DNA from: a virus | Taxonomy: Duplodnaviria; Caudoviricetes | Length of the DNA stretch: 64,000 bases | IMG/VR virus record: IMGVR_UViG_2740891861_000008 | Location: 1 to 64,000 of that record | Direction: 5' to 3' (one strand) | Shown here: piece by piece, positions 1-62,225 of the stretch | How the letters are laid out: each line of letters opens with the position of its first letter | Position numbering within the stretch: the first letter of the stretch is position 1 | Translations under genes and position numbers: made by a program | The notes under the pieces: generated by a model | What the model saw: only the letters and a program-made list of their open reading frames with translations | Database searches by the model: none | What the model was told of the DNA's origin: nothing

Positions 1-48
1 CGATACCTCTCAAAAACGTACAAAACAAAACAACCAAACATAAATCAA

Positions 49-125
<77 letters not shown>

Positions 126-152
126 AAAAATAAAAAGATATCAGATGCTTAG

Positions 153-178
153 AACCCGACGTAAACCGTCGGGTTTTT
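153..178 (+). terminator. Intrinsic terminator after tRNA
   Basis: AACCCGACG-TAAAC-CGTCGGGTT followed by T-run. Confidence 0.8.
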
Positions 179-189
179 GCTTTTGGATT

Positions 190-210
190 TCTTGTCAACA
201 CCTGGTCAAC
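190..210. repeat. Putative integrase arm-type site (left)
   Basis: TCTTGTCAACACCTGGTCAAC, 19/21 identical to 53974-53994. Confidence 0.65.
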
Positions 211-258
211 GTTTTGCGAGCCCCCCATCGACGGTGCGGATAATCGTCGAAAGTACAC

Positions 259-38606: not shown

Positions 38607-41155
38607 GCGACGCCCCCGATGCCAGCAGCGGCATCTTCCGCCCGCGTATTGATTGTAAAGTTCACGAGGTAGTCCCGGTAGAGCTGAACGAACTCGACGT
38701 CCGGGTTACGGGCGATCAAGGCGATGCGCAGTTCCCCTGAAATCGCTCGGAAGGCCTCCTCTGCATCCGTCACGACGTAGACATGCCGCAGTGCTTCCCT
38801 GGCCAGCAGGGCTTCGCGAAAAGCCGTCACGCGTGTCTCATTCAGCAAGACTGCGAACGGGCTGCTTTCCGGAACGAAGACATCCGGCAAGGGGCCTTCA
38901 GGCAAGGTAGGCGACGGGCCGATGGCCCCCGACTTCATCCACAGTAGAGGCAGGATTTCCCTGAAGGCCGCACCAAGCTCCACCCGGTCTTTGTCGAGGA
39001 AGTCGAGCTTGAAGTACGCGACGTTCGCAGGAAACCCTGCCGACATCGGGCGCTTTTCCTCATCCTGGACGATCAACGGGCCAAGCAGGTCATCCACTTG
39101 GGCCTTGAGAGCTTTGAACTGCTTCTCATCCCCGGCAACTATATAGAAATCAGAAATGTGGTCTTTGTCCTCCAAAGCCTCCAGCCACTCAGCAGCAGCA
39201 TCAGGTTCGAACAGGACGGACGCCGTGTGATCTTCGGATACAATGAATCGGCAGCCAAGAGTGACACTGCTCTGAGGTAGTGCCTCGATCATTGCGACAA
39301 GTGCTAGCTTCTTCTTGTGCGCAGCTCTGTGAGCTTTCTTCGCGGCTGCTCCCTGTAAGCCAGCTTCAACGATCAAGTCACTTGGAGACACAAAAGCCGC
39401 GTGGCGGTACGTCCTGCGCTTCTCTTTCTCAACTAAACGACCGGTGAGAAACTCGCCGCTTAATTCGGACCCATCGTCGCGTTTGCCAAGGACCGTGAAT
39501 TTCGTTCGTGGCCAAGTGACAGATCGGCAAACGCCGTGGCGCTCCCATTTCACATGCCCCGGGTCAAATCCGTCGTTTGAAAGCGCTGCTGCCTCCTTGG
39601 CCGAGACTTCATTGTTGGTGACCAGCAAGCAGCGTCGATTGCCTTGATCAATATCATTGATCAATGTGACCGCATTCAATGTGGTACCGCTTCCAGCGAA
39701 GAAGTCGACAATTAAGGCATCCTTTCGATCGCCAATGATTGGTAGCAAAGAATCTCTGACAGCGTAGACTGACTTTGGAAATGCAAAGATGCCGCGCTTA
39801 TTCAGCACTTTGTGCAGCAGAGTCGTTCCGTGGGTTCCGGCGTCGTGTAGCGTATCCCACCATACAGTCTTGACCTTTGTCTTGTTCGGCTTTCTTTCCC
39901 ATATATTGATCGTCCACGTCTTTTTCTTCTTGTTGAACTTTCCTAGAACGACACGCTCTGAGTCTATCAATTCCTGCATTTTGGGGGATACAAAGCGCCA
40001 GCAGCGATGATTTCCATCATGGTCGATCGGCCAAATTGGCTTCAATCCGTCCGGATCAAGGGAAAAGTCAGGCTCTTGGCCGAGTGGAATACTTGGCCCA
40101 GTCCGAACTACCTTTCCTGCCGACTCGTCAATATATATTGGATAGAATTGGTTCCATCTTTGATGCCGATAGCTCGATTCGCTACCCCGTCGTCTTGCAT
40201 GCCTCTTTTCCCAAAGATGTGCAAAAACAGGATTCAAGTGTGACCGGTCTGAGGCGTCGATTGTTACTTCTTCGTCAACATCCTCCTCAGATTCATTGCC
40301 TTCCTCATCGGCAGCGTGATCTAGGGAGATGCCTTGTGCAACGCCGCCTTCGACGTTAGGGAAGCAATAGATTGCCTGTTCTTCGACGCGAGCAAAGTTG
40401 GCTTTTCCAGTTCCCTTCGGATTGATCACAATCGTTACCATTTGCCGGAGATACTCAGGGAAGCACTCTGAAAGCAAAACGCCTAGGTTGAAAAGCTCGT
40501 TTTCATCGATTGTGACAATCAATACGCCGGTCAAGGGCTTTAGTAATCGCTTAGCAAGTTGAAGTCGCTTTTGCATCATTGACAGCCACTTGCTATGTCT
40601 CCAGCTGTCCGCCCGATCCACGAAATCGTTATTGTACTTCCAGTCGCGCGCGCCAGAGTTGTATGGCGGATCGATGTAAATGCAGTCTACCTTGCCCGCG
40701 TAAAGGTATTCCAGAAGCTGCAGTGCGTGGTAATTGTCGGCCTCAATCAGCGTGTGCCACGGCGCATCGGCTGGGCCGTTCTGCACGGCGTCCATGGGCG
40801 TGAGGGTCGGAAAGATCGGGTCTCCGAATTGCTTGACCACCACCAACTCAGCGACTGGCAGGGTCATCCTTTCCCCTGCGCTTTCCTTGTCACCCGCCTG
40901 CCGCGGCTTCATCAGATGCGCGGTACCGCCTTCAATCCGTCGAACGCGCCAGGTCTCGTTCAATGATCCGGAGCGCTTCGCGACCAGGTCACCCTTCCGA
41001 GGCTTGGCGCTGTAGATGGGAACCACCTCAGGCAGGTGTTGTTCGAAGACCAGTCCGAACTTCTTGTGCCGTGTCGCGGCCTCCCATTCGCGCGTGATGC
41101 GTTCCCGCAGCTTGGGGTCAGTGATCTGGTTCAACAGGTCATGTATCGCGGCCAT
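38603..41155 (-). CDS. mod: Type III R-M-like Mod methyltransferase
   Basis: FGLVFE, IEADNYHAL, IDPPY, FPKS, DFFAGSGTT; ATGA overlap with res. Confidence 0.85.
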   Translation of the reverse strand: MAAIHDLLNQITDPKLRERITREWEAATRHKKFGLVFEQHLPEVVPIYSAKPRKGDLVAKRSGSLNETWRVRRIEGGTAHLMKPRQAGDKESAGERMTLPVAELVVVKQFGDPIFPTLTPMDAVQNGPADAPWHTLIEADNYHALQLLEYLYAGKVDCIYIDPPYNSGARDWKYNNDFVDRADSWRHSKWLSMMQKRLQLAKRLLKPLTGVLIVTIDENELFNLGVLLSECFPEYLRQMVTIVINPKGTGKANFARVEEQAIYCFPNVEGGVAQGISLDHAADEEGNESEEDVDEEVTIDASDRSHLNPVFAHLWEKRHARRRGSESSYRHQRWNQFYPIYIDESAGKVVRTGPSIPLGQEPDFSLDPDGLKPIWPIDHDGNHRCWRFVSPKMQELIDSERVVLGKFNKKKKTWTINIWERKPNKTKVKTVWWDTLHDAGTHGTTLLHKVLNKRGIFAFPKSVYAVRDSLLPIIGDRKDALIVDFFAGSGTTLNAVTLINDIDQGNRRCLLVTNNEVSAKEAAALSNDGFDPGHVKWERHGVCRSVTWPRTKFTVLGKRDDGSELSGEFLTGRLVEKEKRRTYRHAAFVSPSDLIVEAGLQGAAAKKAHRAAHKKKLALVAMIEALPQSSVTLGCRFIVSEDHTASVLFEPDAAAEWLEALEDKDHISDFYIVAGDEKQFKALKAQVDDLLGPLIVQDEEKRPMSAGFPANVAYFKLDFLDKDRVELGAAFREILPLLWMKSGAIGPSPTLPEGPLPDVFVPESSPFAVLLNETRVTAFREALLAREALRHVYVVTDAEEAFRAISGELRIALIARNPDVEFVQLYRDYLVNFTINTRAEDAAAGIGGVA

Positions 41156-41419: not shown

Positions 41420-42109
41420 TCATCGCACCTCCCACACCTCGCCGTTGTCGAGCTGCTTGACGAAATCCACCGTTGCGCCGTTCCAGTGATAGGCGAAATG
41501 CGCGCCTTGGGTGGGGATCGGGATCACGTCGGGCCAGAAGACGGCGATGCACTGGCCCTCGGGATAGCGGATGCTGGGCCAGGTGATGCCGTTTGATCCG
41601 GCCGCGCGTCGCTCGGCCCCGAAGACCTGGGACGCGCGGTAGTCGTTGGCGTCCAGCAGGTCGGCGCGGCCGGTGGCGTCGTCCAGATCGGCATCGACGG
41701 ACCCGATCAGTTCGCGGAACTGCGACGTCCAGCCCGGCGACTCGTTCGTGGCGCGCATGAAGCGCGTATGGTGGTGGATGGTTTCGGCGATGGCCACTTC
41801 GGTGCGGTCGCCCGCGTAGTAGAGGCCAAAGCTGCCGTCCGAAAACCGCCCCGGCCGCAGGGGCGAGCAATGGACGAAGGGTGCTATGACCCAGCTGGCG
41901 CCGGGCCCGGTCACGCGGCGTGCGACCGGCACCTTCGACAGATCACCGATGCTGTCGCGGATGCGCGGGTTGAACTTGGCTTCGGCCGAGGCCAGCGCCT
42001 CCCAATCGGCGGGGTCGGCGATGTCTTCGAACAGGTCGATGGGCGGGTGGATCGAGCGGATGATGCGGACAGTGCGTGGCCATGTCACGCGGCGGACAGG
42101 CACATTCAC
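41420..42109 (-). CDS. RES-domain toxin
   Basis: GRFSDGSFGLYY, AIAET, WPSIR; GTG start overlapping antitoxin stop. Confidence 0.85.
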   Translation of the reverse strand: MNVPVRRVTWPRTVRIIRSIHPPIDLFEDIADPADWEALASAEAKFNPRIRDSIGDLSKVPVARRVTGPGASWVIAPFVHCSPLRPGRFSDGSFGLYYAGDRTEVAIAETIHHHTRFMRATNESPGWTSQFRELIGSVDADLDDATGRADLLDANDYRASQVFGAERRAAGSNGITWPSIRYPEGQCIAVFWPDVIPIPTQGAHFAYHWNGATVDFVKQLDNGEVWEVR

Positions 42110-42519
42110 CAGGCACCCCGTTCTGCATCCAGATAGGCGCGCAGGTCGATCAGGTCGGTGATCTCGCCGCGCATCATGATGTCCAGCGCGCTGCGACCGC
42201 CGAGGGCTGTGCTGGGTTTGCGGATCCACGCATAGCCGCGGGTGGGTTCGGTGAAGAGGTACCGCAGCGCCTTGTGGATCCCCATCAGGATCGCCATCCG
42301 CGCGCGCAGGTCCCGGTCGATGCGCCCGATGTCGCCGGTCTTCCAGCGCGCCCATGTGCGCTGGGCCATGTCGCCCAGTAGCACGCGCGCCTCGCCATCC
42401 GTCAGGCCCCAGGCGCGGAACAGGTTGACGGTGGTGCGCGCCAGCGCAGCCGCTTCCTCGTCGGTGATGACAGGAAGGCCAGGGCGCGCGATGATCGGCT
42501 GGACCGTGGCGAACTGCAT
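42106..42519 (-). CDS. Xre/MbcA/ParS-type antitoxin
   Basis: HTH then W...P...LGG.SALD.M, LRAYLDAERG. Confidence 0.85.
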   Translation of the reverse strand: MQFATVQPIIARPGLPVITDEEAAALARTTVNLFRAWGLTDGEARVLLGDMAQRTWARWKTGDIGRIDRDLRARMAILMGIHKALRYLFTEPTRGYAWIRKPSTALGGRSALDIMMRGEITDLIDLRAYLDAERGAW

Positions 42520-42577
42520 GGTCGTTCTCCTTTGGCATCAAGATAGTCATTATGTGCCAAAAGGCAATGACGATCCG

Positions 42578-45976: not shown

Positions 45977-46221
45977 GACCGCCCCCGCGTCTTGCGCACC
46001 GGGTGAGCCTGTTCCTGCGCCCTGATCCACTCCTGGATGGCGGCGCGGCGATAGAAGGTCTTTCGACCTATGCGTGTGCAGGGCGGACCCTGACGGCGGG
46101 CCTCCCACCGCGACAAAGTGTCTGTGGTCAAATCCAGTGCGCGGGCCAGCTGCTCGCGGCTGATCCAGTCGGCCAGGAGGTCAGGGACCTCCTCCACCGG
46201 GTCGTTTTGTATGTCCTTCAT
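45973..46221 (-). CDS. AlpA/Xis-like HTH protein
   Basis: REQLARAL....TL.RW....GPP..RIGRK..Y. Confidence 0.8.
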   Translation of the reverse strand: MKDIQNDPVEEVPDLLADWISREQLARALDLTTDTLSRWEARRQGPPCTRIGRKTFYRRAAIQEWIRAQEQAHPVRKTRGRS

Positions 46222-46282
46222 GGGCTGCTCCGTTCGCCTCGCGCCCCTCTGCCGGGGGCGGTTTCAGCGAAGCAGAGCGCGA

Positions 46283-46334
46283 GGACCGGAAGACAGGCGG
46301 AAGGTGGAACTGGCCGCTAGCTCCCAATTCCACC
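46283..46334. promoter_or_regulatory. Shared operator/promoter box, copy 1
   Basis: GGACCGGAAGACAGGCGGAAGGTGGAA then IR GGTGGAACTG-N12-CAATTCCACC. Confidence 0.65.
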
Positions 46335-46843
46335 CCTTGTTTTATTGGACTTTCAGCGGATAGCGCGCGACGCGACAGGCGTTGCCGCAGCCCTCGCAGC
46401 GCATCTCAAGCGCCGGTTCCTGGCGACGATCCGCACTTCGTCGCCATCGTTTCGTCAGCTTGGGGCTGATTGGGCGGCGCTGAGACGGTTTCGCCGGTTT
46501 CGCAGCGACCGGAATTGCCGGAATGGACCGTTCCGGTCGGGTTCCGGGGGTGCTGGACGATATCCACAAGTTCTTTTTTTGTTCCGTCGCGCCAGCGTAG
46601 GATTCTGGTTGATCGCTCGCCTTCCGGATGCGTAGATTCGTGGTTGAGCAGAACATAAGAATCGACAAGGCAACCGAAGCCAGGTCCCGCCCCTCTTGGG
46701 GTGGAGTGCCCAATTACAGGCAGTTTTCCTCGACGACGTGGGCTGCAGCCAGTCCACCCGCGTGCTTGGCACGGCGGGTTTTTGTAACCCGCAGTCCGAC
46801 GGCCCTGGCCGAAGGATGCCGTATGTCTGAGAGGAGTTCATTC

Positions 46844-47446
46844 ATGCCTTTGCCGCCCGTCGCCTTCTATTCCATCTACGAAATTGCCGTGCGCTGGGGC
46901 TGTCCCCCGGCCGATGTCGCGGGCTGGGCGGCAGAGGGCCAGCTGAAGGTCGTCGCAGGCATTCCGCCCGTCAGATGTGGGGATGAAGTCGTGGGGGGCT
47001 TGGTCGAGGTGCCCATCGCGGAACTGATGTGCATGTTCAGGCGGTTCGGGCCGAGCGACGATATCGGCCGATTGAAGCGCGTTCTCAAACCCGGCAGCGC
47101 GACCTGGGCGCACGTGACCGAACCTTCGGATGGTCTGCCGATCCGCTCGTCAGACCTGATGGTGGCGTCGGGGTCGTTGCTGCAATTCGAGGAAGAACGC
47201 GACCTATTGCGCCGCCCGGCCTCCACCATCGGCGCCAGTCCGCGGTACGATTGGGATTCCATGTACGCGTGGCTGACCGTTTTCCTGTTCGAAAAGGGGG
47301 TGCCCGACACCCAGACCGCGCTGGTTGCGCTGGTGCAGGACTGGTTCGTCCAGAATTCGAAGTCGGGGGAAGTGCCGGATGAAAGCACCATCCGCAAGCG
47401 GCTGACCTCCCTCTGGCGCAAGCTGCGTGGCGAGGAAACGGTGTGA
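46844..47446 (+). CDS. Divergent putative regulator (200 aa)
   Basis: SD GAGGAG; EIA.RWG N-terminus and PDESTIRKRL helix; divergent from early operon. Confidence 0.6.
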   Translation: MPLPPVAFYSIYEIAVRWGCPPADVAGWAAEGQLKVVAGIPPVRCGDEVVGGLVEVPIAELMCMFRRFGPSDDIGRLKRVLKPGSATWAHVTEPSDGLPIRSSDLMVASGSLLQFEEERDLLRRPASTIGASPRYDWDSMYAWLTVFLFEKGVPDTQTALVALVQDWFVQNSKSGEVPDESTIRKRLTSLWRKLRGEETV

Positions 47447-47449
47447 AGG

Positions 47450-48721
47450 TCAGGCCGATTTCGGCAAGTCGGTTCCGTCCTGCGCTGCGTCATGCACAAG
47501 GCGGGGCCGCGGGCGCAGGAGACTGGCCACCGTATCGACGCCTGCGCGCAAGGGGGAATCCATCAGGTGCGCATAACGCTGGGTGGTCTGCATCTGGCTG
47601 TGGCCCAAGAGCTTGCCGATCATTTCCAGCGATGCGCCGCCGCTGACAAGCAGGGAGGCGAAGGTGTGGCGCAGGTCGTGGATGCGGACGTCGGCCAGCC
47701 CGGCGTCCTTCTGTGCCTTGGCCCAGAAACGGCGGATTTCACGCACCGGCTGGCCAACCGTCTCGCCGGGGAAGAGCCACGGATTGCCGCTCGGCACCGC
47801 CCGCAGACGCAGGCGCACGATGGCTGCGACGTCCTGCGAAATCGGCACACGGTGGATCTTGCGCTGCTTGGTGGTCGAGGCGGGTTTCGACCAGATGGCA
47901 TAGTCGAGGTTCAACTGTTCGAACCGCGCGGTGCGAACCTCGCCCACCCGCGCGCCGGTCAACATGCACATGCGGATGATCGCCGCGGCGCGCTGATCCT
48001 CGGCGCCATCCAGCACGGCCGCCAGTCGAGTCAGCTCTTCGGGCGACAGGAAGCGCTCGCGGGCATGTTCGATGCGACGATGGAACCCCTGCGCGGGGTT
48101 GTCCGTCCGCCATTCCCATTCCATGGCCAGCGTGAACATCTTGCGCAGCACCTCACCCATGCGGTTGGCGCGGATCGGGGTGGGCTTGTGGCCCTGCAGT
48201 TTGCGGGCCCTGTTATTGGGTTTCGCCTTGCAGGGGCGGGGGCGGCCCTCGGCCACAAAATCGAGGAACTTTGCCACATCGGACTTGGTGATCTCTGTCA
48301 CCAGCCGGTTGCCCCAGGCCGGTTCCACCATCTTCTTCAGCATCGAGACCTGGTCGCCCGCATTGGTCTTGGCGAGTTTCGGCAGATGCTCGGCGATGTA
48401 GCGGTCGATCATGTCCGTGACGCGCGGGGCCCCTCGCCATTCGTCGCGCGCCGCCAGAGGGTCCTGCCCTTCGTCGATGGCGCGCCGCAGTTCCTTGGCG
48501 CGTTCGCGCGCGGCCGTGACGCTCCACTCCGGCCAGCGCCCGATGGTCATCCGGCGCTGCCGCCCTGAGTGCCGGTAGTCGATGGTGAAGGTCCGCGCGC
48601 CCGAGGCCTGCACGCGGGCGGCGAAGCCGATCACCTCCGTGTCGAAGATCTGATAGCTGACGCCGGGCTTGGGGTCCGCCTCGCGCAGGGTTTTCTCATT
48701 CAGTTTCAGTCTCTTGACCAT
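47450..48721 (-). CDS. int: Tyrosine integrase with arm-binding N-domain
   Basis: TGARVGE, HDLRH, LGH, TQRYAH; SD GGAGG. Confidence 0.93.
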   Translation of the reverse strand: MVKRLKLNEKTLREADPKPGVSYQIFDTEVIGFAARVQASGARTFTIDYRHSGRQRRMTIGRWPEWSVTAARERAKELRRAIDEGQDPLAARDEWRGAPRVTDMIDRYIAEHLPKLAKTNAGDQVSMLKKMVEPAWGNRLVTEITKSDVAKFLDFVAEGRPRPCKAKPNNRARKLQGHKPTPIRANRMGEVLRKMFTLAMEWEWRTDNPAQGFHRRIEHARERFLSPEELTRLAAVLDGAEDQRAAAIIRMCMLTGARVGEVRTARFEQLNLDYAIWSKPASTTKQRKIHRVPISQDVAAIVRLRLRAVPSGNPWLFPGETVGQPVREIRRFWAKAQKDAGLADVRIHDLRHTFASLLVSGGASLEMIGKLLGHSQMQTTQRYAHLMDSPLRAGVDTVASLLRPRPRLVHDAAQDGTDLPKSA

Positions 48722-48790
48722 GCTTCGCACCTCCGTCGCCAACGACACAGGCGTAGACCTGCGCCACTATCAAGTCGGACCACAGGGCCG

Positions 48791-48840
48791 GGACCGGAAT
48801 ACAGGCGGAAGGTGGAATTGAAGGCCGGGGGACAATTCCG
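48791..48840. promoter_or_regulatory. Shared operator/promoter box, copy 2
   Basis: 26/27 identity to 46283-46309; GGTGGAATTG-N12-CAATTCC. Confidence 0.65.
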
Positions 48841-48984
48841 GGAAGGAAAAACAAGGTGTTACGCGACTTGGCCCAGTGCGAGGGGTTGGGAAAAGACGGA
48901 CGCACTCCACCATCTTCGCCGATGGTTTGATCGGGATCTGCGCATGAGGTAATCCTGTCGGAACGCTCCTATCCCGAAACTGCA

Positions 48985-49434
48985 ATGCCCAGCGCCAAGC
49001 CTCCGAGAAACCTGACGCCCGTTCTTTGCCAGCGGCTGCAGACCGAGATGCTGAAGGCCTGCGAAGCCGTCGCCGCCCGTCATGGCCTGGTGGTCGAGCC
49101 GCGCGACATCACCGGCGTTGACCTGCGCTGGGGGTTTGATGCGACGTTTCGGGTGTCGATCCCGATGGCTGATGGAACTGCCCTTAACCCTGAAAGACTG
49201 CGCTTCGAGGCGCTGGCAGAAGCGTTCGGCTTGTCGCCGAACGATTTCGGACGCCAGTTCAGCGCAGGGCGCGAGTCCTTCCGGATCACTGGCATCGACC
49301 CCCGCCGCCCCAAATACCCGGTTTCCGCCGAACGCATCCCTGACGGGCAAGGATTCAAGTTCACCATCGAACAAGTAGCGACACAGCTGCAGAAGGGTAT
49401 GAAGGATGTGACACCGAGGGGCAAAGGTTGGTAG
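48985..49434 (+). CDS. Hypothetical protein (149 aa)
   Basis: Normal codon pattern; GID.RRPKYPV motif. Confidence 0.6.
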   Translation: MPSAKPPRNLTPVLCQRLQTEMLKACEAVAARHGLVVEPRDITGVDLRWGFDATFRVSIPMADGTALNPERLRFEALAEAFGLSPNDFGRQFSAGRESFRITGIDPRRPKYPVSAERIPDGQGFKFTIEQVATQLQKGMKDVTPRGKGW

Positions 49435-49638
49435 CTCTCAGACGTAAAGCGGCCGATCGATCTCTTCTCGAGCAACGATCCCATCGCTCAGCCAGATCGG
49501 TTTTCCTGTTACCCGAAACTTCGTGCCGGAAACTCTCATTCCATGATGCGCCGATCAGTCGTCTGTCGACTCCAGCTCATACACTATGCATTCTAGAGAG
49601 ATGAAAATGGAAGTCTGTCTGCATGTTTTGGCCTGCGA

Positions 49639-50745
49639 GTGCGGGTACTATGCCTGCAACATGTAGCGCAATTCAAACAAGGGTTCTTGATAGTGATCGT
49701 GAGCGCCACTAGCACAAAGTCCAAGGTCACCTTCTTGGAAACGGTTTATCCACCGATTTCCAATCAGGAGACTATCTGGCTTCAGAATGACCCGGAGGTG
49801 GAGGCGCTGCTGAGGCAGAGTGACTTCTATATGATAGGGGGGCGCGCCGAGGCAAAATACTTGAATCTCGTCATCGACCCTGAGGCCAATGCTATCACCT
49901 TTGACTTCGCGATTGGCGACGATTTTCGTGACCCCGTCGAGATCCGCATCCGCGATCTACCAGCCGTCAAGCAATCGAACGCTGATTCCTTTTGGATCGA
50001 GACCGGCGACAAGAATATCCGAATATGGGACGGACCGATCGGCGAGGCCAGCTCGAACGTTCTGGAGTGGTTCACGACCGAGAAACTGATTTGGGATCGG
50101 TCGCGTGGCCGTATGGGTATCGAGCGCTTCGATCGTTACCGCGAGGCCGCGATCTACGATCTCCTTTATGTCGGCATCGCCAAGGTCGGTGACAGCTTCG
50201 ACCGTCTCATCAGCAATGGGCACAAAGCTCGCATGGAGATCCTCGGCAACGAGCCCCAGCGCTATCCCGGAGCGCGGGTGACCGACGAAATCTATTTGTT
50301 CTTGTTCAACGTGCAGCCGCTCATCATGACGACATTCGAGCTGGGCCATGACTTCGAGAACGAAGATTTCAGAAGCGCCTACGACCATAAGCGTATCGTC
50401 GCCGACGCCGAGAAGGCGTTCGTAAGCACCCTGAAGCCCGAATACAACGTGGTGAAGTTCGCGAGCTACCCGAAGGGTGCGGACGGCCTCTACGGCTCTG
50501 ACTTCGTTCGATACGGCTACGCGATCTGCGAGGCCATCTCCTTCAACACGGCGCATGGCCGGATCAGGGGAAGCCGGGACGCGGACACCGGCTTCATCAC
50601 TAATGATGCCGACAGCATCTTCGTCGAAGGAAACACTGTGAAGCTGTTCGTCTCGGGCGTCGACTTCTCGGCCGAGTCGCCGCCAGCCGCGCTGAATGCG
50701 GCTCCGCAAGTCGACAAGAAGGAAGAAAACCAGGGGGGTGTATGA
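49639..50745 (+). CDS. GIY-YIG-like nuclease (start uncertain)
   Basis: LLYVGIA..DRL...H...DAEKAF..LKPEYN; ATGA overlap with next gene. Confidence 0.6.
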   Translation: MRVLCLQHVAQFKQGFLIVIVSATSTKSKVTFLETVYPPISNQETIWLQNDPEVEALLRQSDFYMIGGRAEAKYLNLVIDPEANAITFDFAIGDDFRDPVEIRIRDLPAVKQSNADSFWIETGDKNIRIWDGPIGEASSNVLEWFTTEKLIWDRSRGRMGIERFDRYREAAIYDLLYVGIAKVGDSFDRLISNGHKARMEILGNEPQRYPGARVTDEIYLFLFNVQPLIMTTFELGHDFENEDFRSAYDHKRIVADAEKAFVSTLKPEYNVVKFASYPKGADGLYGSDFVRYGYAICEAISFNTAHGRIRGSRDADTGFITNDADSIFVEGNTVKLFVSGVDFSAESPPAALNAAPQVDKKEENQGGV

Positions 50746-53705
50746 TCAATCGCGGTTCCGAATGGCATCGATGGGAGCCGCATATCCATGCGCCCGGCAC
50801 CCTGTTCAACAACCAATTCAAAGGCCCGAGCGCCTGGAACGACTATCTCACCAGCCTCGAACAGGCGACGCCGGTGATACGCGCGATTGCGGTGACCGAC
50901 TATTATTGTACCGACACCTATCAGGACGTTGTCCGAGAGATGAAGGAAAATGGCCGCCTGCCACAGGTTGCGCTTGTTTTCCCCAATGTCGAGCTACGGC
51001 TCGACGTGGCGACTGTGAAAGAACGCTGGACCAACATCCACTTGCTCGTCTGCCCCGACGATCCGAAGCATGTGGCTGAGGTGGAACGATTTCTCAGCCG
51101 GCTGAGATTTGAAGCCTTCGGCGACAACTTCGCCTGCACGAGAGAAGACTTCGTCAAGCTGGGCCGGAAATCCAAGCCAGAGCTCAGCGACGAGCGGGCC
51201 GCGTTCCGCCACGGGGCTTCGCAGTTCAAGGTCAACTTCGGAAAGTTGCGCGAAGAATACGGCAAGAGCGATTGGGCGAAAGAGAACATCCTGATCGCCG
51301 TCGCAGGGGCCGAGACCGATGGCACGTCCGGCATCCGCGATGCGAATGACGCAACCTTGCGACAGGAAATCGAGAAGTTCGCGCACTTCATTTTTGCCAG
51401 CAGCCCGGCCCAGAGGGATTTCTGGCTAGGCCGGAAAAGCGGCGTCGGAGAAGACCTGCTGCGCGAACGATATGACGGGTGCAAACCGTGCCTGCACGGC
51501 AGCGATGCGCATGAGCAGGCGACCGTCGCCAAGCCAGACGGCAACCGCTACTCTTGGATCAAAGGTGCGCTCGAATTCGATGCGCTACGCCAAGCCTACA
51601 TCGATCCTGCGGGCCGGGCTTATGTCGGACCTAATCCCCCGTTTCGAGCGACGCCCGCACGCGTTGTCGCGGAGGTCGAATTGACGGGCGCCGACTGGGC
51701 GCAGACGCCCAAGCTCGCGCTCAACCCCGGTTTAGTCGCTATCATTGGGGCCCGGGGATCGGGCAAGACCGCGCTTGCGGATGCGATCGCGGCGGGATGC
51801 GACGCGACGGATGGACGATTGAGCAATGCGTCATTTATCGTGCGAGCGCGAGAGCATCTCGACGGCGTAGGCGTCCGGCTGAGCTGGGAGACCGGAGATC
51901 CGTCGGTGCGCCCCTTGCTCGACGATTCATTTGATCCGTCGCTCTACCCGCGAGCGCGGTATCTTTCCCAGAAATTCGTCGAGGAGCTTTGTTCGGCTGA
52001 TGGCCTCAAGGACGAATTGCTGAGCGAGATCGAACGGGTCATTTTTGAAGCGCATAGCACGCTGGAACGCGACGGAGCGACGGATTTTCGTGAGCTGTTG
52101 GAGTTGCGGACGATCGTGTTGCGCGACAACCGCGGCCGTGACGAAGAGGCCATTGAGACACTCTCTGATCAAATCGGGCTCGAACGCGAGAAGCAGAGCC
52201 AGATCGTGGGCCTCAAATCGCAAATCACTCAGAAGGACGCGCTGATAGCGGGCTATATCAAGAGCCGAGACAAGTTGGTAACCGCGGGCAGCGCGGAGCG
52301 CGTCGCGCGGCTGAACGCGCTGACTGAAGCCGCCGATTATGTCCGGACGCAGATTCGGCTTTGGTCACAGGAGACTCAGGCTCTGCGCTCATTGCAGAAC
52401 GACGTATCCGATTTCCGAACAAATCGCGCGCCGATGGCCCTGCGAACGACCAAGCAGAACTTCGTTGGTGCGCATCTCGATGATACGTCGTGGGAGGCAT
52501 TCCGGCAGACCTACGCCGGCAACGTCGACGGGACATTGACTGAGCGACTGGCCAAGGCCGAGAAGGCAACTGCAGGGTGGCGAGGTAAGGAGCTGCCGCG
52601 TAAGACGAGCGACCAGGAGCCCTTTGTCGCTGACGACGCCGAGCTTAAGCAATTGTCGCTTGGCGAACTTGAGGCCGAGATCGGCCGCATTCAGCGCCTC
52701 ATTAACATTGATACCGACACTGCCAATCGCTTGCGCACGATCACCACTAAGATCGGGGACGAGAACGCCACCCTGAAGCGGCTGAAGGATTCCCTGACCG
52801 ACTGCGAAGGCGCGGCGGCGCGGACCACGCAGCTCCAGTCCGATCGAGAGAAGGCCTATTTGCGGGTCTTCGAATCCATTGTTGCCGAAGAACAAGTGCT
52901 GCACGCGCTGTATCGACCGCTCATGGACCGGCTTGCGCAAGCGTCCGGGACACTGCGCAAATTGTCGTTCTCAGTGTCGCGCCATGCGGATGTGCATCGC
53001 TGGGCGACAGAGGGCGAAGGCCTGTTCGACAAACGACGCACCGGCCCGTTCAAGGGCGTTGGCACTCTGGAGGCTTGGGCCAACGCGCTGCTGAAGCCGG
53101 CGTGGGAATCGGGCGATCCAAAAGCCGTTGCCGAGGCCATGGCGGGGTTCCGCCAGGCTCATCAGGCCGAACTGCTCGATCTCTCCGAGGTGCCGCGATC
53201 ACAGCAAGCGGATTATCGCTCCTGGCTGAGACGCTTCGCCAAGTGGCTTTACGGCACGAGCCATATCGAGATCACCTATAGTATCGACTACGAAGCCGTC
53301 GACATCCGCAAGCTCTCTCCAGGCACGCGCGGCATCGTCCTGCTGTTGCTCTATCTCGCCTTGGACGATAGTGATGACCGCCCGCTGATCATCGACCAGC
53401 CGGAGGAAAACCTCGATCCGAAGTCGATCTTCGACGAGCTGGTAGAGCTATTCATCGCCGCGAAAAACGTACGCCAGGTCATTATGGTAACGCACAACGC
53501 GAACCTCGTCGTCAACACGGATGCCGATCAGGTCATCGTTGCGTTTTCCGGCACACATACGCCAGGCAAGCTGCCGCCCATTCGCTACCTGTCGGGTGGC
53601 CTTGAAGACGCGACGATGCGAAAGCATGTCTGCGATATCCTCGAGGGTGGCGACCGTGCATTTAAGGAGCGCGCGCGGCGCCTCCGTGTCCGCCTCGATC
53701 GATGA
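50742..53705 (+). CDS. PHP phosphoesterase + ABC/SMC-like ATPase (Ppl/TrlF-like)
   Basis: PHIH, VTDY, GSDAH; GARGSGKT, coiled coils, LSPG, IIDQPEENLD, VTHN. Confidence 0.85.
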   Translation: MINRGSEWHRWEPHIHAPGTLFNNQFKGPSAWNDYLTSLEQATPVIRAIAVTDYYCTDTYQDVVREMKENGRLPQVALVFPNVELRLDVATVKERWTNIHLLVCPDDPKHVAEVERFLSRLRFEAFGDNFACTREDFVKLGRKSKPELSDERAAFRHGASQFKVNFGKLREEYGKSDWAKENILIAVAGAETDGTSGIRDANDATLRQEIEKFAHFIFASSPAQRDFWLGRKSGVGEDLLRERYDGCKPCLHGSDAHEQATVAKPDGNRYSWIKGALEFDALRQAYIDPAGRAYVGPNPPFRATPARVVAEVELTGADWAQTPKLALNPGLVAIIGARGSGKTALADAIAAGCDATDGRLSNASFIVRAREHLDGVGVRLSWETGDPSVRPLLDDSFDPSLYPRARYLSQKFVEELCSADGLKDELLSEIERVIFEAHSTLERDGATDFRELLELRTIVLRDNRGRDEEAIETLSDQIGLEREKQSQIVGLKSQITQKDALIAGYIKSRDKLVTAGSAERVARLNALTEAADYVRTQIRLWSQETQALRSLQNDVSDFRTNRAPMALRTTKQNFVGAHLDDTSWEAFRQTYAGNVDGTLTERLAKAEKATAGWRGKELPRKTSDQEPFVADDAELKQLSLGELEAEIGRIQRLINIDTDTANRLRTITTKIGDENATLKRLKDSLTDCEGAAARTTQLQSDREKAYLRVFESIVAEEQVLHALYRPLMDRLAQASGTLRKLSFSVSRHADVHRWATEGEGLFDKRRTGPFKGVGTLEAWANALLKPAWESGDPKAVAEAMAGFRQAHQAELLDLSEVPRSQQADYRSWLRRFAKWLYGTSHIEITYSIDYEAVDIRKLSPGTRGIVLLLLYLALDDSDDRPLIIDQPEENLDPKSIFDELVELFIAAKNVRQVIMVTHNANLVVNTDADQVIVAFSGTHTPGKLPPIRYLSGGLEDATMRKHVCDILEGGDRAFKERARRLRVRLDR

Positions 53706-53973
53706 GGACGGAAGATGAGATGGAAAGCATGTTGGTCCGGATCGTGTCGGCCGATCTGGCGCTACATCTCTATCAATGGCCCGCAAACGCCGAGCGGGTT
53801 CATTTGAAGTCAACAACATTCGACAGTGCTGGCAATCTTTAGTGAGGTCCCGAAATAGCCATTCGCCCCCGTCATGTTGAACGGCAGCTTCCTGCGCTTT
53901 GGGTTCAATGTACTGTGGCTGCCGTGCCCTTCTGTGGCGCGTGCGATCATCGTCGTAGGTTGGGCGTCCGTGC

Positions 53974-53994
53974 TCTTGTCAACGTCTGGTCAAC
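53974..53994. repeat. Putative integrase arm-type site (right)
   Basis: TCTTGTCAACGTCTGGTCAAC matches 190-210. Confidence 0.65.
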
Positions 53995-54132
53995 CCGCGA
54001 ATGCCGCCTCGGCACTTCGGAAGCTGTCGAATCACGATGATACTTGGTAGATTCCAACGAGAGATTTTGCGATTTCAAAGGCTTGCTCGCTAACGCATTG
54101 ATTTGAAGGGAATCTGAAAAATTACAGGGCTC

Positions 54133-54179
54133 GGCTCATAACCTGAAGGCCGTAGGTTCAAATCCTACCCCCGCAACCA
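54133..54179 (+). repeat. attR of element 1 / left junction of element 2 (tRNA 3' half)
   Basis: GGCTCATAACCTGAAGGCCGTAGGTTCAAATCCTACCCCCGCAACCA; no 5' half; flanked by IHF-consensus sites. Confidence 0.92.
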
Positions 54180-54339
54180 GAAAATAACGCGTTATCAAAC
54201 GCTTATGCGCCGCCCTCCGGGGCGGCGTTTGCGTTTCCAGCACCCGTGGAAGCACTGTGGAAGCAAGAGGGCGCGAAGTCCTTCATGTCGCTGCGTAAAT
54301 CTGCACGCGCCGAAATTAGTGCAGCATGAGCGGCGCCCC

Positions 54340-56214
54340 TCAAGGGAACATCCTCTCGCAAGCTGACCGATGTGCCAGCGACAGCGCCTCTGGATCGATG
54401 CCAAGCCGATCAGCGTACTGGATGCTCATTCCGTCCATCACATCGGTGATCGACACTGCGAGCAGTTCGTCCTTCGAGAGGTGCGTCCTGCGATAGACCT
54501 GCTCCATCAAGGGAAGGATGTGGCGCTGTATCTTGGTGCGTTCGCTTGGTGAGAGCCGTGCACACAGGCAAGCATGCATGCACCAGAAGCAGGTGGCCCA
54601 GCACTCGAGCAAGTCGGCAGGAAGTTGGTCGTGGACGCTGTCAAGCTTCAAGAACCGTATGGCGGGCTTTGACCCGCCGAAAACTTTGAAAATCAGCCGT
54701 CCGAGGACGTAAGGCCAACTGTTGGGATCGCCCTCCACGGGTAGAACCTGCAAGCTTGTCCGATCTTTCAGCTTTTCGCCTGCCTTGTCCGTGCCTCTCC
54801 ACGAGGCGGCACAGATGATCATCAGTAGTGCGCGAAGCCGCAGAAAATCGCGGGACGAAAGGCTGCCACTCTCCTGCTTGAGTTCGATGCGCTTAGCGAA
54901 GTCCGCGGCCGCCTTCACAAGCTGATCCTTCGTCGCCTGCGCCCGACGAGCGTTGCGACGCTGCTCTTCCTCGCCTCCGTCCTGAACTGGCCTCGAAGTC
55001 GGTTTGGCCGCGAACTCCTCCCCTGCCGCCATCGCGGCTTCGGCATTCTGGGTCTCGTCCCCGAGATCGAAGGCATCCTTCAGGGCGTCCTCGTCGTTTT
55101 CATCGACCGGCGTTACGAGCGAGTTCAACCCGACGATCCGGTTCAGAAAGCCGCGGACGATAGATACGTCGCTGCCGCCGAGGCTGTTGTGCTGAACATG
55201 CCCCGATTGGTGTGGCCGACGACCAGCGATGAAGTCGTCGTAGCTCAGTTGGCGATGCTTCTGGCCGCCTTCATCCGTTTCCTTTCGAGCCTTCGGGATG
55301 GAGACGCCTTCGCCGTGCCCGTCGGCATCGCGATCTTCGATCTTCTCGAGCAAGTCCTGCACTTCGAGCAAAGCGAGGGTGGCTTCTGTTTCGCCGTCCA
55401 GCTGAGCGAGCGCATTCTCCGTTTGTCGTGAGTGTGTTTCGCGAATTGCGATCTGCAGGGCATCTATGTGCGTGATGATCCCTGGCGTGAACTCGTGCGG
55501 CCCGATCAGTCGTGCGAAGGCCGGAAGGTCATCGGTTGCCTCAATCTGGAAGCGGATTCTCCGATGATCAGTACCTTCGAGTCGTGTCGGATTGCTGACC
55601 AGCGGCGCGCCGGAGGCAGCCAGCAATTCGACTTCATATGCCTCGGGTGCGCCGATTTGCGCAGCTGGTCGCCAGCTCAGCGTGTCGCCGTGAACTGCGA
55701 AAATGCCCGGGTGACTCTGAGAGAGGGCGTCGAACGGGATGTCTTCTTCGACGTGCAGCGGCGGCAGCTTCTCAGCCTCAATTCTCCTCTCGGGCGTGAG
55801 CACCTTCTCCAGCCCCAACTCCGAGACAGCCCGACCTGGCGGCAGCTGACGGTATAGGCTTGCCTCGCTGTTGGAGCCTGATGTGTTCCCAGTGCCAAGA
55901 GCTGCAACCGTGCAGTTCGCGCTGCCAATCAAGAGGTGGTCCGCCGTATCGGTTTGCGCGATCAGAGCTTTGGCATGGATGAAGCGACTGCCCCCAAAGC
56001 CATCCCGGCGATAGAGCGTGATGCCGGAAATGCTCCCTGTCGCATCCCGCGGGAACAACCCGGTGTCTGTGTCGATGAGCGCAGCGATTGCCCGTGGGCG
56101 AAGCCGCTCAGCAAGAGCCGACAGGGCTCCGAGCCGCTCATCCCAATAGGGACTGATGACGATCAGGCGTTTCACTTCGCCGTCGATCTCGCGGGCGACG
56201 CGTGCGCCTATGGG
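54340..56214 (-). pseudogene. 5'-truncated PLD (HKD) domain protein
   Basis: VISPYWD, FIHAKALI....D...IGSANCT; frame ends at junction with terS fragment. Confidence 0.7.
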
Positions 56215-56229
56215 CTACAAGATGGACAA

Positions 56230-56441
56230 GGCTGTTCCGGCTGGCGCGGGAGGAACGGGACGCGTGGGTGACCTGGCCTGCGCGCGCGGCGGCGCTGATG
56301 GCGGCCGAGCTCTCGGCCTCGTGCCGCGACGCGACGGGCCAGCAAATCACCGTGGAGCCAGCCGCGATGCAGAAGGTCCTGGAAAAACATGTACGCGCCC
56401 ACCTCGACGAACTCGCCGAGGTCCGGCCCGACTTCCGGTGA
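56230..56441 (+). pseudogene. terS: terS C-terminal fragment
   Basis: LFRLAREERDAWVTWPA..HVRAHLDELA, paralogous to 27166-27702. Confidence 0.8.
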
Positions 56442-57814
56442 GAGCGGCGATGGCCTGACGCACTTCGACGGCGCGGGCGAGATCCTGCGCGCCTGGGGCA
56501 ACGGGCTGCGGCCCGACCCGGACCTGACCGTCTCGGAATGGGCGGACCGGCACCGGATGCTCTCGGGCCGCGCCTCGGCCGAGCCCGGGCGGTATCGCAC
56601 GGTGCGCACGCCCTACATGCGCGAGATCATGGATCGGCTGTCGCCGGGCGATCCCACGCAGCGGATCGTGTTCATGAAGGCTGCGCAGGTCGGGGCGACC
56701 GAGGCCGGCAACAACTGGATCGGCTTCGCGATCCATCAGGCGCCGGGCCCGATGCTCGCGGTCCAGCCGACGGTGGAACTGGCCAAGCGCAACTCGCGAC
56801 AGCGGATCGACCCGCTGATCGACGAGAGCCCCGAGCTGCGGGAGCGGGTCAAGCCCGCGCGATCCCGCGATGCGGGCAACACGATGCTGTCGAAGGAATT
56901 CGCGGGCGGCATCCTGATCATGACGGGCGCGAACTCGGCGGTCGGGCTGCGCTCGACCCCGGCACGGTACATCTTCCTCGACGAGGTCGACGCCTATCCG
57001 GCCTCGGCCGACGAGGAAGGCGATCCGGTGACGCTGGCCGAGGCCCGGTCGCTGACCTTCGCCCATCGCCGCAAGGTGCTGCTCGTCTCGACCCCGACGA
57101 TCCGGGGGCTGAGCCGGATCGAGCGCGAATACGAGGCGTCCGACCAGCGCCGGTTCTTCGTGCCGTGCCCGCATTGCGGTGCGATGCAGTGGCTGAAGTT
57201 CGACCGGCTGCGCTGGCAGAAGGGCCGCCCGGAGACGGCGGAGTATCACTGCGAGGGCTGCGAAACGCCCATCGCGGAGCACCACAAGACGGCGATGCTG
57301 GAGGGCGGCGAATGGCGGGCGACCGCGACCGCCGCCGATCCGACGACGGTCGGGTATCACCTCTCGGCGCTCTATTCGCCGATCGGCTGGCTGAGCTGGG
57401 AGCGGATCGTGCGGGCATGGGACGCGGCTCAGGGGTCGGACGAGGCGATCAAGGCGTTCCGCAACACGATCCTCGGCGAGACCTGGGTCGAGACCGGGGA
57501 AGCCCCGGACTGGCAGCGGCTCTACGACCGCCGCGAGCGCTGGACATCCGACACGGTGCCAGCTGGCGGGCTGTTCCTGACCGCCGGGGCAGACGTGCAG
57601 AAGGACCGGATCGAGGTCGACGTCTGGGCATGGGGGCGCGGTCTGGAAAGCTGGCTCGTCGATCATGTCGTGATTGAGGGCGGGCCGGACCGGCACGACG
57701 CGTGGTCGGAGCTGACGGCGCTGCTGGATCGAAGCTGGCCGCATGCCCGGACGGCCGCTTTCGGTGCTGGCATTGACGGTTCCGATTGCTTGGAAAAACG
57801 TGAGCGACAGTAGC

Positions 57815-57840
57815 TTACTTTTTCCAAAAGTAACACACTA
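57815..57840 (-). other. MOBV-like oriT
   Basis: Minus-strand TAGTGTGTTA overlapping IR TTACTTTT-TCC-AAAAGTAA. Confidence 0.55.
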
Positions 57841-58029
57841 CCGATTGACCCTTGCCGGGCCGCTCCGCTTCAATCCGTGTGGCAAGGGATACCCCTGCAC
57901 CCCGAACGGCCTTTCAGGCCGTGCGGCCTTGATCCGCCCCAGCCATGTGGGGGCGGTCGGATCAAGGCCGCCGCGCCACCCCCCATGCCCATTTCCGCAG
58001 AAGTGCATATGCACACGCACTCAAACGAG

Positions 58030-60184: not shown

Positions 60185-60394
60185 ATGACCGACTGGACGG
60201 AAGCCGAGCTCTCGGCGTTGCGCCGGGCCTATGCCAGCGGCACGACCCGGGTCAGTTATGATGGAAAATCGGTCGACTACGGCTCGGCCGAGGATCTTCT
60301 GACGCGCATCCGGACCATCGAACGCGCCATCGCGGGCACGGCGCGGCCGCTGCCGGTGGCGGGGCTCGCGGGCTTCTCGCGCGGGGACCGGTGA
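60185..60394 (+). CDS. gpW-like head-tail joining protein
   Basis: ASGTTRVSYDGKSVDY. Confidence 0.8.
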   Translation: MTDWTEAELSALRRAYASGTTRVSYDGKSVDYGSAEDLLTRIRTIERAIAGTARPLPVAGLAGFSRGDR

Positions 60395-62007
60395 TGTCGG
60401 CAAACTGGTTCGACCACGCCATCGCCACGGTGGCGCCGCGCATGGCGGCCCGACGCGTGCTGGCACGGCAGGCTTTCGAGACCCTGACGCGCGGCTATGA
60501 TGGTGCGTCGAAAGGGCGGCGGACGGACGGCTGGCGCGCGCCGGGATCCTCGGCCGACACCGAGATCGGCGTGGCCGGTGCTCTGCTACGCGACCGGATG
60601 CGCGATCTGGTGCGCAACAACCCGCATGCGGCCAAGGCCGTGGCGGTGCTTGTGAACAACATCACCCGCATGCAGAAGGAGGCATCCATGCCTGAGAGCA
60701 CGACCACCGTGGCCGGGGATGTCCCCGCCAGCACCGAGACCCGCCAGCCGCCTGTCGCGGCCCCGGCGAACTCCGAACCCGCCGCCGCGCGTATGCCGGA
60801 TGCGCCCGCCACGCCCGACAGCGAGGCCATCGCAACTCGCGCCCGCGAGGCCGAACGCGACCGCGTCTCCACCATCTACGATCTGACCGGCCGTCTGAAC
60901 CTCGAACGCAGCTTCGCCGACGATCTGGTCAAGCGCGGCGTCAGCGTCGACGAATCCCGCCGCCTTATCCTCGACCAGATCGCCGCGAAATCCGACGAGA
61001 CCCGGACCTTCCCGCATGTCTCGGTGCCCCTCGGCGGCCGCGACGAGCGGATCACCCGCCGCGACGCCGTGGCGAACGCGCTGCTGCACCGCTACAGCCC
61101 CACGCTCTTCCCGCTCGAGGATGCCGCGCGCCAGTATCGCGGCATGACCCTGCTGGAACTGGCCCGCGAAAGCCTCGGCAATGCCGGGGTCAACACGCGG
61201 GGCCTGTCGCGCGACGAGGTGGCGACGCGCGCGCTGCACTCGACCTCGGACTTCCCCGAGATCCTGTCGGCGGTCACCAACAAGACCCTGCGGCAGGCCT
61301 ACGACGCCTATCCCCGGACCTTCGCGCTCTTCTGCCGCCAGGTGCTGGCGACCGACTTCAAGTCCATGCACCGGGTGCAACTGGGCGAGGCGCCGCAGCT
61401 TCTGGAAGTGGGCGAAAGCGGCGAGTTCAAGCGCGGCACCCTTGGGGAAAGCAAGGAGAGCTACCGCGTGAAGACCTATGGCCGGGTCGTCGCGATCACC
61501 AGGCAGGTGCTGATCAACGACGATCTCGACGCCTTCACCCGAATCCCCGCGATGTACGGCAACTCCATCGCGCAGCTGGAAAGCGATGTGGTCTGGGGCA
61601 TCATCACCGCGAACCCGGCGATGGCCGATGGCAACGCGCTGTTCCACACCACGCACAAGAACCTCGCCGCAACGGGCGCCGCGCTGGACGTGGCGAGCGT
61701 TGGCGCGGCCCGGGCGGCGATGGCGCTGCAGACCGGCCTCGACAAGAAGACGGTGCTGAACATCCGCCCAGCCTTCCTGATCGTGCCCGCCGCGCTGGAA
61801 CTGAAGGCCGAGCAGCTGGTGGCGCAGAACCTTGTCCCCGCCGACAGCGCCAAGGTGGTCCCGCAGTCGATCCGTACCCTCTCGCCGATCAGCGAGCCGC
61901 GCCTCGATGCGGCCAGCGCCACTTCCTGGTATCTGGCGGCGAGCCCGAACCAGATCGACACCATCGAATACGCCTATCTCGAGGGCCAGCAGGGTGCCTA
62001 CATCGAA
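60391..62007 (+). pseudogene. Portal N-terminus fused by deletion to C-terminally truncated major capsid
   Basis: RDLVRNNPHA..VNNI joined at ~60663 to TRMQKEASMPE..HSTSDFP..AYLEGQQG; capsid-like sequence stops at ~62007. Confidence 0.8.
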
Positions 62008-62225
62008 AGACGAGCTTCGGTCCGCGACCCTGGGCGGCGATGCCCATGTACATCCGGGCGGGGTCGTTCGTTGCCGGCACAGTCCGGGCGAAAAAGCTGT
62101 CCGTGCGATCCACGCCGGGCGGCGGGAAGATCCGCGCACCGATGAGTTGCGTCGCCATGGGAACCTCCACAGGCCGCAGCTAATCTTGCGGAAGGCCAAA
62201 TGCAAGGATTTATTGCGCACAGCGG

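Follow-up and report, generated by a model that had tools for sequence, protein, structure and literature searches.

A 64,000-nucleotide stretch of DNA (positions 1 to 64,000 of the IMG/VR virus record IMGVR_UViG_2740891861_000008; hereafter the window) contains two coupled genes that comparison with related loci identifies as a 4.07-kb mobile cassette. The first gene (gene 1) is a predicted GIY-YIG nuclease from an unnamed protein family, and the second (gene 2) encodes a protein of the TrlF family. The cassette probably serves in defense against phages or other foreign DNA, and we propose, with a probability of roughly 40%, that it is a facultative 'cut-and-chew' module whose genes act in series. 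Gene 1 would nick or break invading DNA and leave 3'-OH ends; TrlF would sense these ends and degrade the DNA from them, so that the host would no longer depend on ends made by a phage's own homing endonucleases.

As the preliminary description of the locus had stated, the cassette consists of two open reading frames (ORFs), both on the plus strand (49639..50745 and 50742..53705), that overlap by an ATGA. The longest ORF of gene 1 opens at 49639, and the GTG at 49693 is more likely to be its start, because the protein is 350 amino acids long in its database forms and similarity to relatives at the DNA level sets in at 49687. Gene 1 is accordingly placed at 49693..50745, and its residues are numbered after the 350-amino-acid form. 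Gene 1 contains, near its end, a Shine-Dalgarno-like GGGGGG (50733-50738), followed by the ATGA in which the TrlF start overlaps the gene 1 stop (junction, 50733..50745, plus strand). Gene 2 (50742..53705) encodes 987 amino acids.

Searches of Pfam, NCBIfam and PADLOC returned no match for gene 1, with E-values of up to 1 admitted for Pfam and PADLOC. A word-indexed search recovered 638 related proteins, and among the 120 matches listed every source name shown is 'hypothetical protein'; at 50% clustering the family has 412 representatives, nearly all of them 300-350 amino acids long. On these grounds gene 1 is the founder of an unnamed family, as judged against the three catalogues searched. 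No member was found in 50,697 phage records, and in a sample of 401 genomes taken across the class the gene is rare and patchy, occurring in two. Neither phmmer nor a profile search matched gene 1 to PDB sequences at E-values of up to 10. Kinship with TrlG was considered and rejected: gene 1 and the 97 family members that we aligned show no SLFN_AlbA_2 or HATPase_c_4 match.

The preliminary description had read a GIY-YIG pattern in gene 1, with FYMIG as a displaced first strand ahead of a large insert, and the family alignment agrees. The motifs FYMIG, LLYVG, R, H and AEKAF..KPEYN are all present, at positions that the 97 aligned sequences conserve without exception or almost so. Y46, G161, R171, H177, E199, E240 and P260 are invariant; Y159, D198, D238, K241, Y251 and N252 are nearly so, with Y159 and N252 at least 90% conserved. 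The putative catalytic residues thus appear in GIY-YIG order (Y46, Y159, R171, H177, E240, N252). In GIY-YIG domains the GIY and YIG strands usually stand ~10-11 residues apart; in gene 1, and throughout its family, 113 residues separate Y46 from Y159.

The AlphaFold2 (AF2) model of gene 1 is confident (predicted local distance difference test score, pLDDT, 93.1; predicted template modeling score 0.89) and accounts for this gap. Its elements are a strand at residues 45-50, a strand at 154-162, helices at 168-174 and 178-186, a strand at 200-215 and a helix at 232-247, which is the β1-β2-α-α-β3-α order of the GIY-YIG fold with an insert between strands 1 and 2. The predicted first strand (FYMIGG, residues 45-50, plus strand 49825..49842) carries Y46, and the structural alignment to I-TevI starts close to it, at model residue 42. 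The secondary structure of the model then delimits a β-rich inserted domain (residues 51-153, 49843..50151, plus strand), which on its own resembles small β domains weakly (3k8r, Z 5.3; 3luu, Z 4.4; the N-terminal domain of BBOX1, Z 4.6). Conserved columns and profile alignment place the rest of the predicted core at residues 154-255 (50152..50457, plus strand), with the LLYVG strand (Y159), R171, H177, strand 3, the E240 helix and N252. A small C-terminal β domain follows (residues ~260-320, 50470..50652, plus strand), whose strands at 271-319 have high pLDDT and whose conserved residues are P260, D264, G265, Y274, E280, G293 and D307. In the proposed module, the insert and this C-terminal domain would together choose the DNA target.

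An exhaustive VIA-align search of 48,161 chains with the model ranked a GIY-YIG enzyme first: T4 EndoII, at Z 5.4 with 110 residues aligned (model 14..254), in a search in which only two of the chains reached Z ≥5. Five more GIY-YIG structures stood in the top 21, namely the N-domain of GRXS16 (4.3), UvrC (4.2, 84 of 89 residues), I-TevI (3.9), Eco29kI (3.9) and PD-T4-3 (3.5), and all six alignments bridge the insert, running from residues 1-42 to ~254. In the ESM Atlas the first named cluster was Eco29kI (score 0.80), a lead only. We also aligned the family profile by hhalign to a set of 24 GIY-YIG domain stretches, most of them UvrC and a few from small stand-alone proteins, taken from related genomes; E-values ranged from 0.0023 to 0.0077, and Y159, R171, H177, E240 and N252 fell on the matching motif positions.

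Several results weigh against this assignment. The Pfam GIY-YIG model PF01541 matches neither gene 1 nor any of the 97 family members (a search of the window's own genome with this model gave a single match, on another contig); the hhalign probabilities are low, at 3-13%; the structural Z scores are modest, all below 8; and Foldseek found no match to the model in PDB or BFVD at E ≤0.001. Nonetheless, because several modest lines combine (the model, the VIA-align ranking, the conserved residues and the hhalign register), we consider it very probable that gene 1 has a GIY-YIG nuclease core with a large insert, and the structural check of the earlier assignment favors that fold. Such a protein would extend the GIY-YIG superfamily by a domain inserted inside the catalytic core.

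Gene 2 matches the NCBIfam model NF045780 with 685.6 bits (cut-off 350), its residues 4-981 covering model positions 1-943 of 944, and a whole-genome search agrees; this identifies it as a full-length member of the already named TrlF family. The intact PHP metal ligands and the full ABC ATPase split by coiled coils that the preliminary description saw in it are borne out by homologues and model alike. Across 62 homologues (the window protein included) the PHP ligands H14, H16, D53, E84, H100, H252, D255 and H257 are invariant, as are the ATPase motifs: Walker A (336-343), Q410, the signature (858-864), Walker B (D885/E888) and H918. The AF2 model (pLDDT 82.6) comprises a PHP domain (1-300), an ATPase N lobe (307-436), a coiled coil (449-733) and a C lobe (736-987). 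Its Foldseek matches are the heads of SMC, JetC, Rad50, RecN and LmuB, with PHP phosphoesterases and EndoQ among its relatives; phmmer found nothing among PDB sequences at E-values of up to 0.01.

The closest characterized design is that of Ppl, and the scores place gene 2 as a relative of Ppl, not a member: NF042955 gives 110.5 bits (cut-off 1000), mainly over residues 837-981, and the PADLOC Ppl model gives 102.1 bits. Ppl (Gao_Ppl; NF042955, PADLOC PDLC02208) is described as a single-gene anti-phage protein of E. coli that combines a PHP exonuclease with a Rad50-like ATPase (PMC12904381). The same text presents it as a 3'-5' exonuclease released by nucleoside triphosphate depletion and by 3'-OH ends from phage homing endonucleases (PMC12904381), and phages are reported to escape it by losing those endonucleases (PMC12904381, PMC13648713).

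The preliminary description had gone further and cast the ATPase/PHP protein as a sensor that gates a GIY-YIG effector, a reading that amounts to an obligate two-component system like Septu, PARIS or Lamassu. Translational coupling would suit such a system, the design is common among ABC-ATPase defense systems, and PADLOC reports AriA, LmuB, GajA and PtuA for gene 2, though the matches are weak (17-48 bits) and confined to the ATPase motifs. The hypervariability of the TrlF coiled coil between gene-1-linked lineages is also what a sensor surface might show. Yet TrlF has an intact nuclease domain of its own, and its relative Ppl works as a single gene; a 96.7%-identical TrlF exists without gene 1; relatives of gene 1 mostly lack an ATPase partner; and gene 1 matches no PADLOC effector model. 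Gating of this kind finds no direct support in our results, and we hold it to be decidedly improbable.

The variation in the coiled coil is strongly regional. Between the two gene-1-linked TrlF lineages, residues 451-700 (window 52092-52841) are 26-38% identical per 50-residue block, while the C-terminal ATPase lobe is 72-94% identical (94% over 851-900) and the PHP domain 54-74%. The coiled-coil region is a possible specificity surface.

To define how far the two genes travel together, we gathered 83 loci with a gene-1 relative (identified below by L numbers where needed): 17 from genomes, one from the class sample and 65 from metagenomes (scan with 20 closer sequences). TrlF directly follows gene 1 in 16 of them, and in one more (L014) a TrlF remnant broken by an insertion sequence (IS) does. 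All 17 TrlF-linked loci have a gene 1 at least 81% identical to the window copy. That level is reached at 19 loci. Two of these have no TrlF: in L006 an IS interrupts gene 1, and in L033 the contig runs out; among the 18 at which downstream DNA is present, TrlF occurs in 17, the IS-cut L006 being the exception. Each of the 16 paired loci has an ATGA or GTGA where the two genes meet, preceded by a G-rich run in 13; in L026-L028 the NF045780 match begins at residue 19, and the true TrlF start is ambiguous there. Some copies show decay or interruption: TrlF is split between two frames in L003 and L053 has a broken gene 1, while in L014 gene 1 contains a Mutator-family transposase and in L006 the truncated gene 1 is immediately followed by an IS (rve).

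When window positions 46001-58000 were compared with the 83 loci by blastn, the shared block began at 49687-49705 and ended at 53710-53761, with 84-90% identity in the closest set. The block common to relatives (49687..53753, plus strand) therefore comprises both genes and ~50 nucleotides past the TrlF stop, and nothing else. What surrounds it differs from locus to locus: a serine-recombinase island with a PIN gene (L001, L002, L004, L011, L023), an SNF2 helicase (L007), a NACHT protein (L025), a tyrosine integrase and others, in named hosts from several orders of Alphaproteobacteria. At L026-L028 gene 1 is 81% identical to the window copy and TrlF just 52-55% (NF045780, 711 bits), and at L060 a distant TrlF-family gene (334 bits, the protein being cut by the contig end) precedes a 45%-identical relative of gene 1 by two genes. 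From the different flanks, the tight common block and the pairings in L026-L028 and L060, we conclude that gene 1 and TrlF have stayed linked, have been transferred as a unit and were brought together on more than one occasion. Our literature search, which left subscription journals outside its coverage, found no paper on the pairing.

The pairing has clear limits, and these count against a module that works only as a whole. Co-occurrence of the homologues, which the preliminary description had put forward as a test of its proposal, holds at ≥81% identity and fails beyond it: gene-1 homologues of ≤77% identity occupy 64 loci, 43 of which have at least 1 kb of downstream sequence, and TrlF follows in none of these 43. 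In the class sample TrlF exceeds the cut-off in 21 of the 401 genomes and gene 1 occurs in two, both being present just in the window's own genome. Among 72,556 plasmids searched by tblastn, 203 records contained TrlF (counted at an E-value of 1e-50 or better) and four contained gene 1; at the two gene-1 plasmid loci that were opened, no TrlF is annotated within 5-6 kb. The closest TrlF on plasmids, that of pAMI8 from Paracoccus aminophilus, is 96.7% identical to the window's and stands without gene 1, its homology to the window starting at 50717, 25 nucleotides before the TrlF start codon. Finally, a gene of ~530 amino acids, with no family above threshold and absent from the window, follows TrlF with a four-nucleotide overlap in 10 of 15 paired loci (L001 7906-9507 and homologues), and in L032 it comes directly after gene 1 with no TrlF (7188-8762), as if TrlF had been inserted. 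Judged by these distributions, the pairing is lineage-specific and facultative, both genes also occurring in other company.

Several further observations concern the genes downstream. The L032 copy of the ~530-amino-acid gene has a weak DUF4365 match (E 1.3e-4, below cut-off). An alternative set, a TauD-like gene and a 312-amino-acid gene (90% identical between pAMI8 and L026), follows TrlF in both pAMI8 (L146, NC_022050.1, 8974-11127) and L026 (6140-7772). In pAMI8 a small gene annotated as a GIY-YIG nuclease comes after this set; the possibility that the 166-amino-acid gene after the cassette in L001 is a copy of it was rejected, blastp showing no similarity.

Such limits are what would be expected of two independent single-gene defense modules, gene 1 being a restriction-like GIY-YIG enzyme (perhaps modification-dependent like PD-T4-3) and TrlF a Ppl-like one, which were welded together in one lineage and are co-transferred with no mutual need. 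Most gene-1 homologues have no conserved neighbor and lie in varied defense islands; a near-identical TrlF is alone on pAMI8; Ppl is described as a single-gene system (PMC12904381); and the restriction enzyme PD-T4-3 is among the structural matches of gene 1 (Z 3.5). This account fits less well with the four-nucleotide overlap that every paired locus retains, the ribosome-binding run for TrlF lying within gene 1, or with block boundaries that are tight and identical across contexts. The joining of gene 1 to two TrlF lineages 52-55% identical to each other, and to the distant TrlF relative of L060, likewise exceeds simple adjacency. We therefore regard independence as a serious alternative, although a somewhat unlikely one. 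If it holds, gene 1 would be a candidate new single-gene restriction-like nuclease and the cassette a further case of TrlF as a promiscuous add-on module.

The serial cut-and-chew reading accommodates both the coupling and its limits. GIY-YIG enzymes leave 3'-OH ends, and serial action is the simplest account because a GIY-YIG gene is here translationally coupled to a relative of Ppl, a protein reported to be triggered by such ends. Serial action needs no stable complex, which would explain why the pairing is optional; because each gene is also found in other company, the link would be a functional synergy kept by selection in one lineage and not an obligate complex. The same logic fits the occurrence of TrlF beside restriction, HNH and DUF2130 genes. 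The Ppl mechanism on which it draws is the one given in secondary accounts of the original study (Xu et al., Mol Cell 2026). Of the claim that this is a new two-gene system, what stands is that gene 1 is uncatalogued and that the coupled pairing recurs; what does not is the novelty of gene 2, which belongs to a named family (NF045780), and the fixity of the pair.

If the cassette works in series, an endonuclease of its own would free a Ppl-like defense from phage homing endonucleases. The coupling offers a test case for how end-sensing nuclease-ATPases obtain their trigger, a question opened by recent work on Ppl and OLD. A broader version, which we think unlikely, would make TrlF-type proteins general second-stage, end-sensing exonucleases behind any endonuclease of a mobile element, and the gene-1 family a dedicated end-maker whose insert selects foreign DNA and which would close the route by which phages escape a Ppl-like defense. 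Were it true, gene-1 relatives that lie beside Gabija and an LmuB-like ATPase (L009, L012, L037) would feed other end-sensing ABC-ATPase systems.

The company that each gene keeps elsewhere bears on the defensive role itself. When the genes around 82 loci were clustered, no flanking family besides TrlF recurred widely. In the non-TrlF set (141 neighbors within two genes, from 57 non-redundant loci), many neighbors are defense or mobile genes: Gabija (GajA 653 bits, GajB 543), HamA with a helicase, short pAgo with TIR, a SIR2 protein (PDC-S25), nSTAND3-Mrr, AbiE, RES, HipA, type I restriction genes, integrases, relaxases and ArdC. Gene-1 relatives lie directly upstream of a complete Gabija in L009 (6001-11373) and L012 (4892-10356), in the latter with Hachiman HamA on the other side, and one adjoins a short pAgo with a TIR protein in L049 (6001-9996). 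For TrlF, we scanned 55 of the 75 ORFs, the longer ones, that flank 22 TrlF genes of the class sample. A TrlG-like gene is directly downstream in five of the 22, and the other neighbors include DUF2130 (one), HNH (two) and restriction-modification genes (two), as well as toxin-antitoxin or Abi genes.

A role outside defense would be either repair or maintenance of a mobile element, by an SbcCD/Rad50-like end processor and a UvrC/Slx1-like nuclease, or, for gene 1, that of a selfish homing-type endonuclease beside TrlF. The structural relatives do include repair enzymes (UvrC for gene 1; Rad50, RecN and EndoQ for gene 2), and gene 1 is present or absent beside near-identical TrlF genes, as mobile endonuclease genes often are. 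The published record on TrlF also speaks against reading it as a defense protein: the family is named after the temperature restriction locus (TRL) trlR-trlF-trlG of Photorhabdus laumondii, and temperature restriction is reported as the only known phenotype of the operon, mapped to trlG, with no mutations found in trlF (PMC7554251). Set against these points, gene 1 is unmatched among the phage records, and defense and mobile genes dominate the neighborhoods. The flanks on the gene 1 side differ between loci with and without it, so that there is no simple empty site, and the rarity and patchiness of the family are unlike those of core repair genes. We judge a non-defense role to be highly unlikely.

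Around the cassette, the window is rich in defense and mobile genes. The gene pair lies in a patch of lower G+C content (0.55-0.61 versus ~0.68), with a tyrosine integrase gene on one side (47450..48748, minus strand) and, on the other, a 611-amino-acid ORF on the opposite strand, followed by prophage remnants. The preliminary description had placed the pair in a cargo slot between the integrase and attR, which we could not confirm: the only repeat pair near the integrase leaves both genes outside. This imperfect 64-nucleotide direct repeat (73% identity; 46268-46331 and 48776-48839) flanks the integrase gene and a 272-amino-acid ORF of no known family (46628..47446, plus strand), and could delimit a 2.5-kb mini-island. 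In L002, L011 and L023 a serine recombinase gene flanks the cassette; a 47-nucleotide stretch of the window (54133-54179), about 430 nucleotides past TrlF, matches the 3' end of that gene at 91-96% identity and may be a remnant of such a serine-recombinase island. This stretch is followed, ~500 nucleotides past TrlF, by a terminator-like G+C-rich hairpin (54207..54228, plus strand) of nine pairs, eight of them G-C, which is a consensus match only, terminator-like sites in the region being no more numerous than in shuffles. A simple promoter scan of 48700-54400 found no sigma-70-like site. The stretch is contained in wastewater metagenome runs (probably DNA); four short contigs (171-259 nucleotides) from one metatranscriptome run fall on both genes and show neither transcription nor a joint transcript.

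The 611-amino-acid ORF (54340-56175, minus strand) is convergent with TrlF and has no Pfam or NCBIfam family; its residues 63-126 give a weak PADLOC ZacB match (31.7 bits). The prophage remnants (56389-57813 and 60391-62145) include a terminase gpA whose nuclease domain is cut short (140 of 294 model positions), together with an ORF in which a portal N-terminus is joined to a capsid domain. Further away, another low-G+C patch (36096-41155, minus strand) holds a type III-like restriction pair, an 850-amino-acid N6_N4 methylase and an 836-amino-acid ResIII helicase, which a RES-domain protein adjoins (41420-42550, minus strand). The window also has an MmeI-like gene from 62895 onward and, at 259-1419, a Fic gene.

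Gene 2 shares the whole architecture of the TrlF family, in which a PHP domain is joined to an ABC ATPase that a coiled coil divides. The setting differs from the founding trlR-trlF-trlG operon: gene 2 is not accompanied by trlR or trlG, and the partner here is upstream and GIY-YIG-like. TrlG-like genes elsewhere combine SLFN_AlbA_2 with HATPase_c_4, and neither domain was found in the scanned window ORFs that neighbor TrlF, the next large ORF being on the opposite strand; the trlR/trlG operon is a feature of the founding locus and not part of the NF045780 model. Ppl has the same domain design as gene 2, whose C-terminal ATPase region matches the Ppl models, but has no dedicated endonuclease partner, unlike TrlF here.

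With the GIY-YIG nucleases T4 EndoII, UvrC (N-domain), I-TevI, R.Eco29kI and PD-T4-3, gene 1 shares the predicted strand and helix order and the Tyr, Tyr, Arg, His, Glu, Asn set; it differs from them in the ~100 residues inserted between the GIY and YIG strands and in its extra N- and C-terminal β elements. Septu (PtuA/PtuB), PARIS (AriA/AriB), Gabija (GajA/GajB) and Lamassu (LmuB/LmuA) likewise place an ABC/SMC-type ATPase beside a nuclease in a small mobile operon. The cassette differs from all four in that their nuclease models do not match gene 1, its ATPase carries a nuclease of its own and its pairing is optional.

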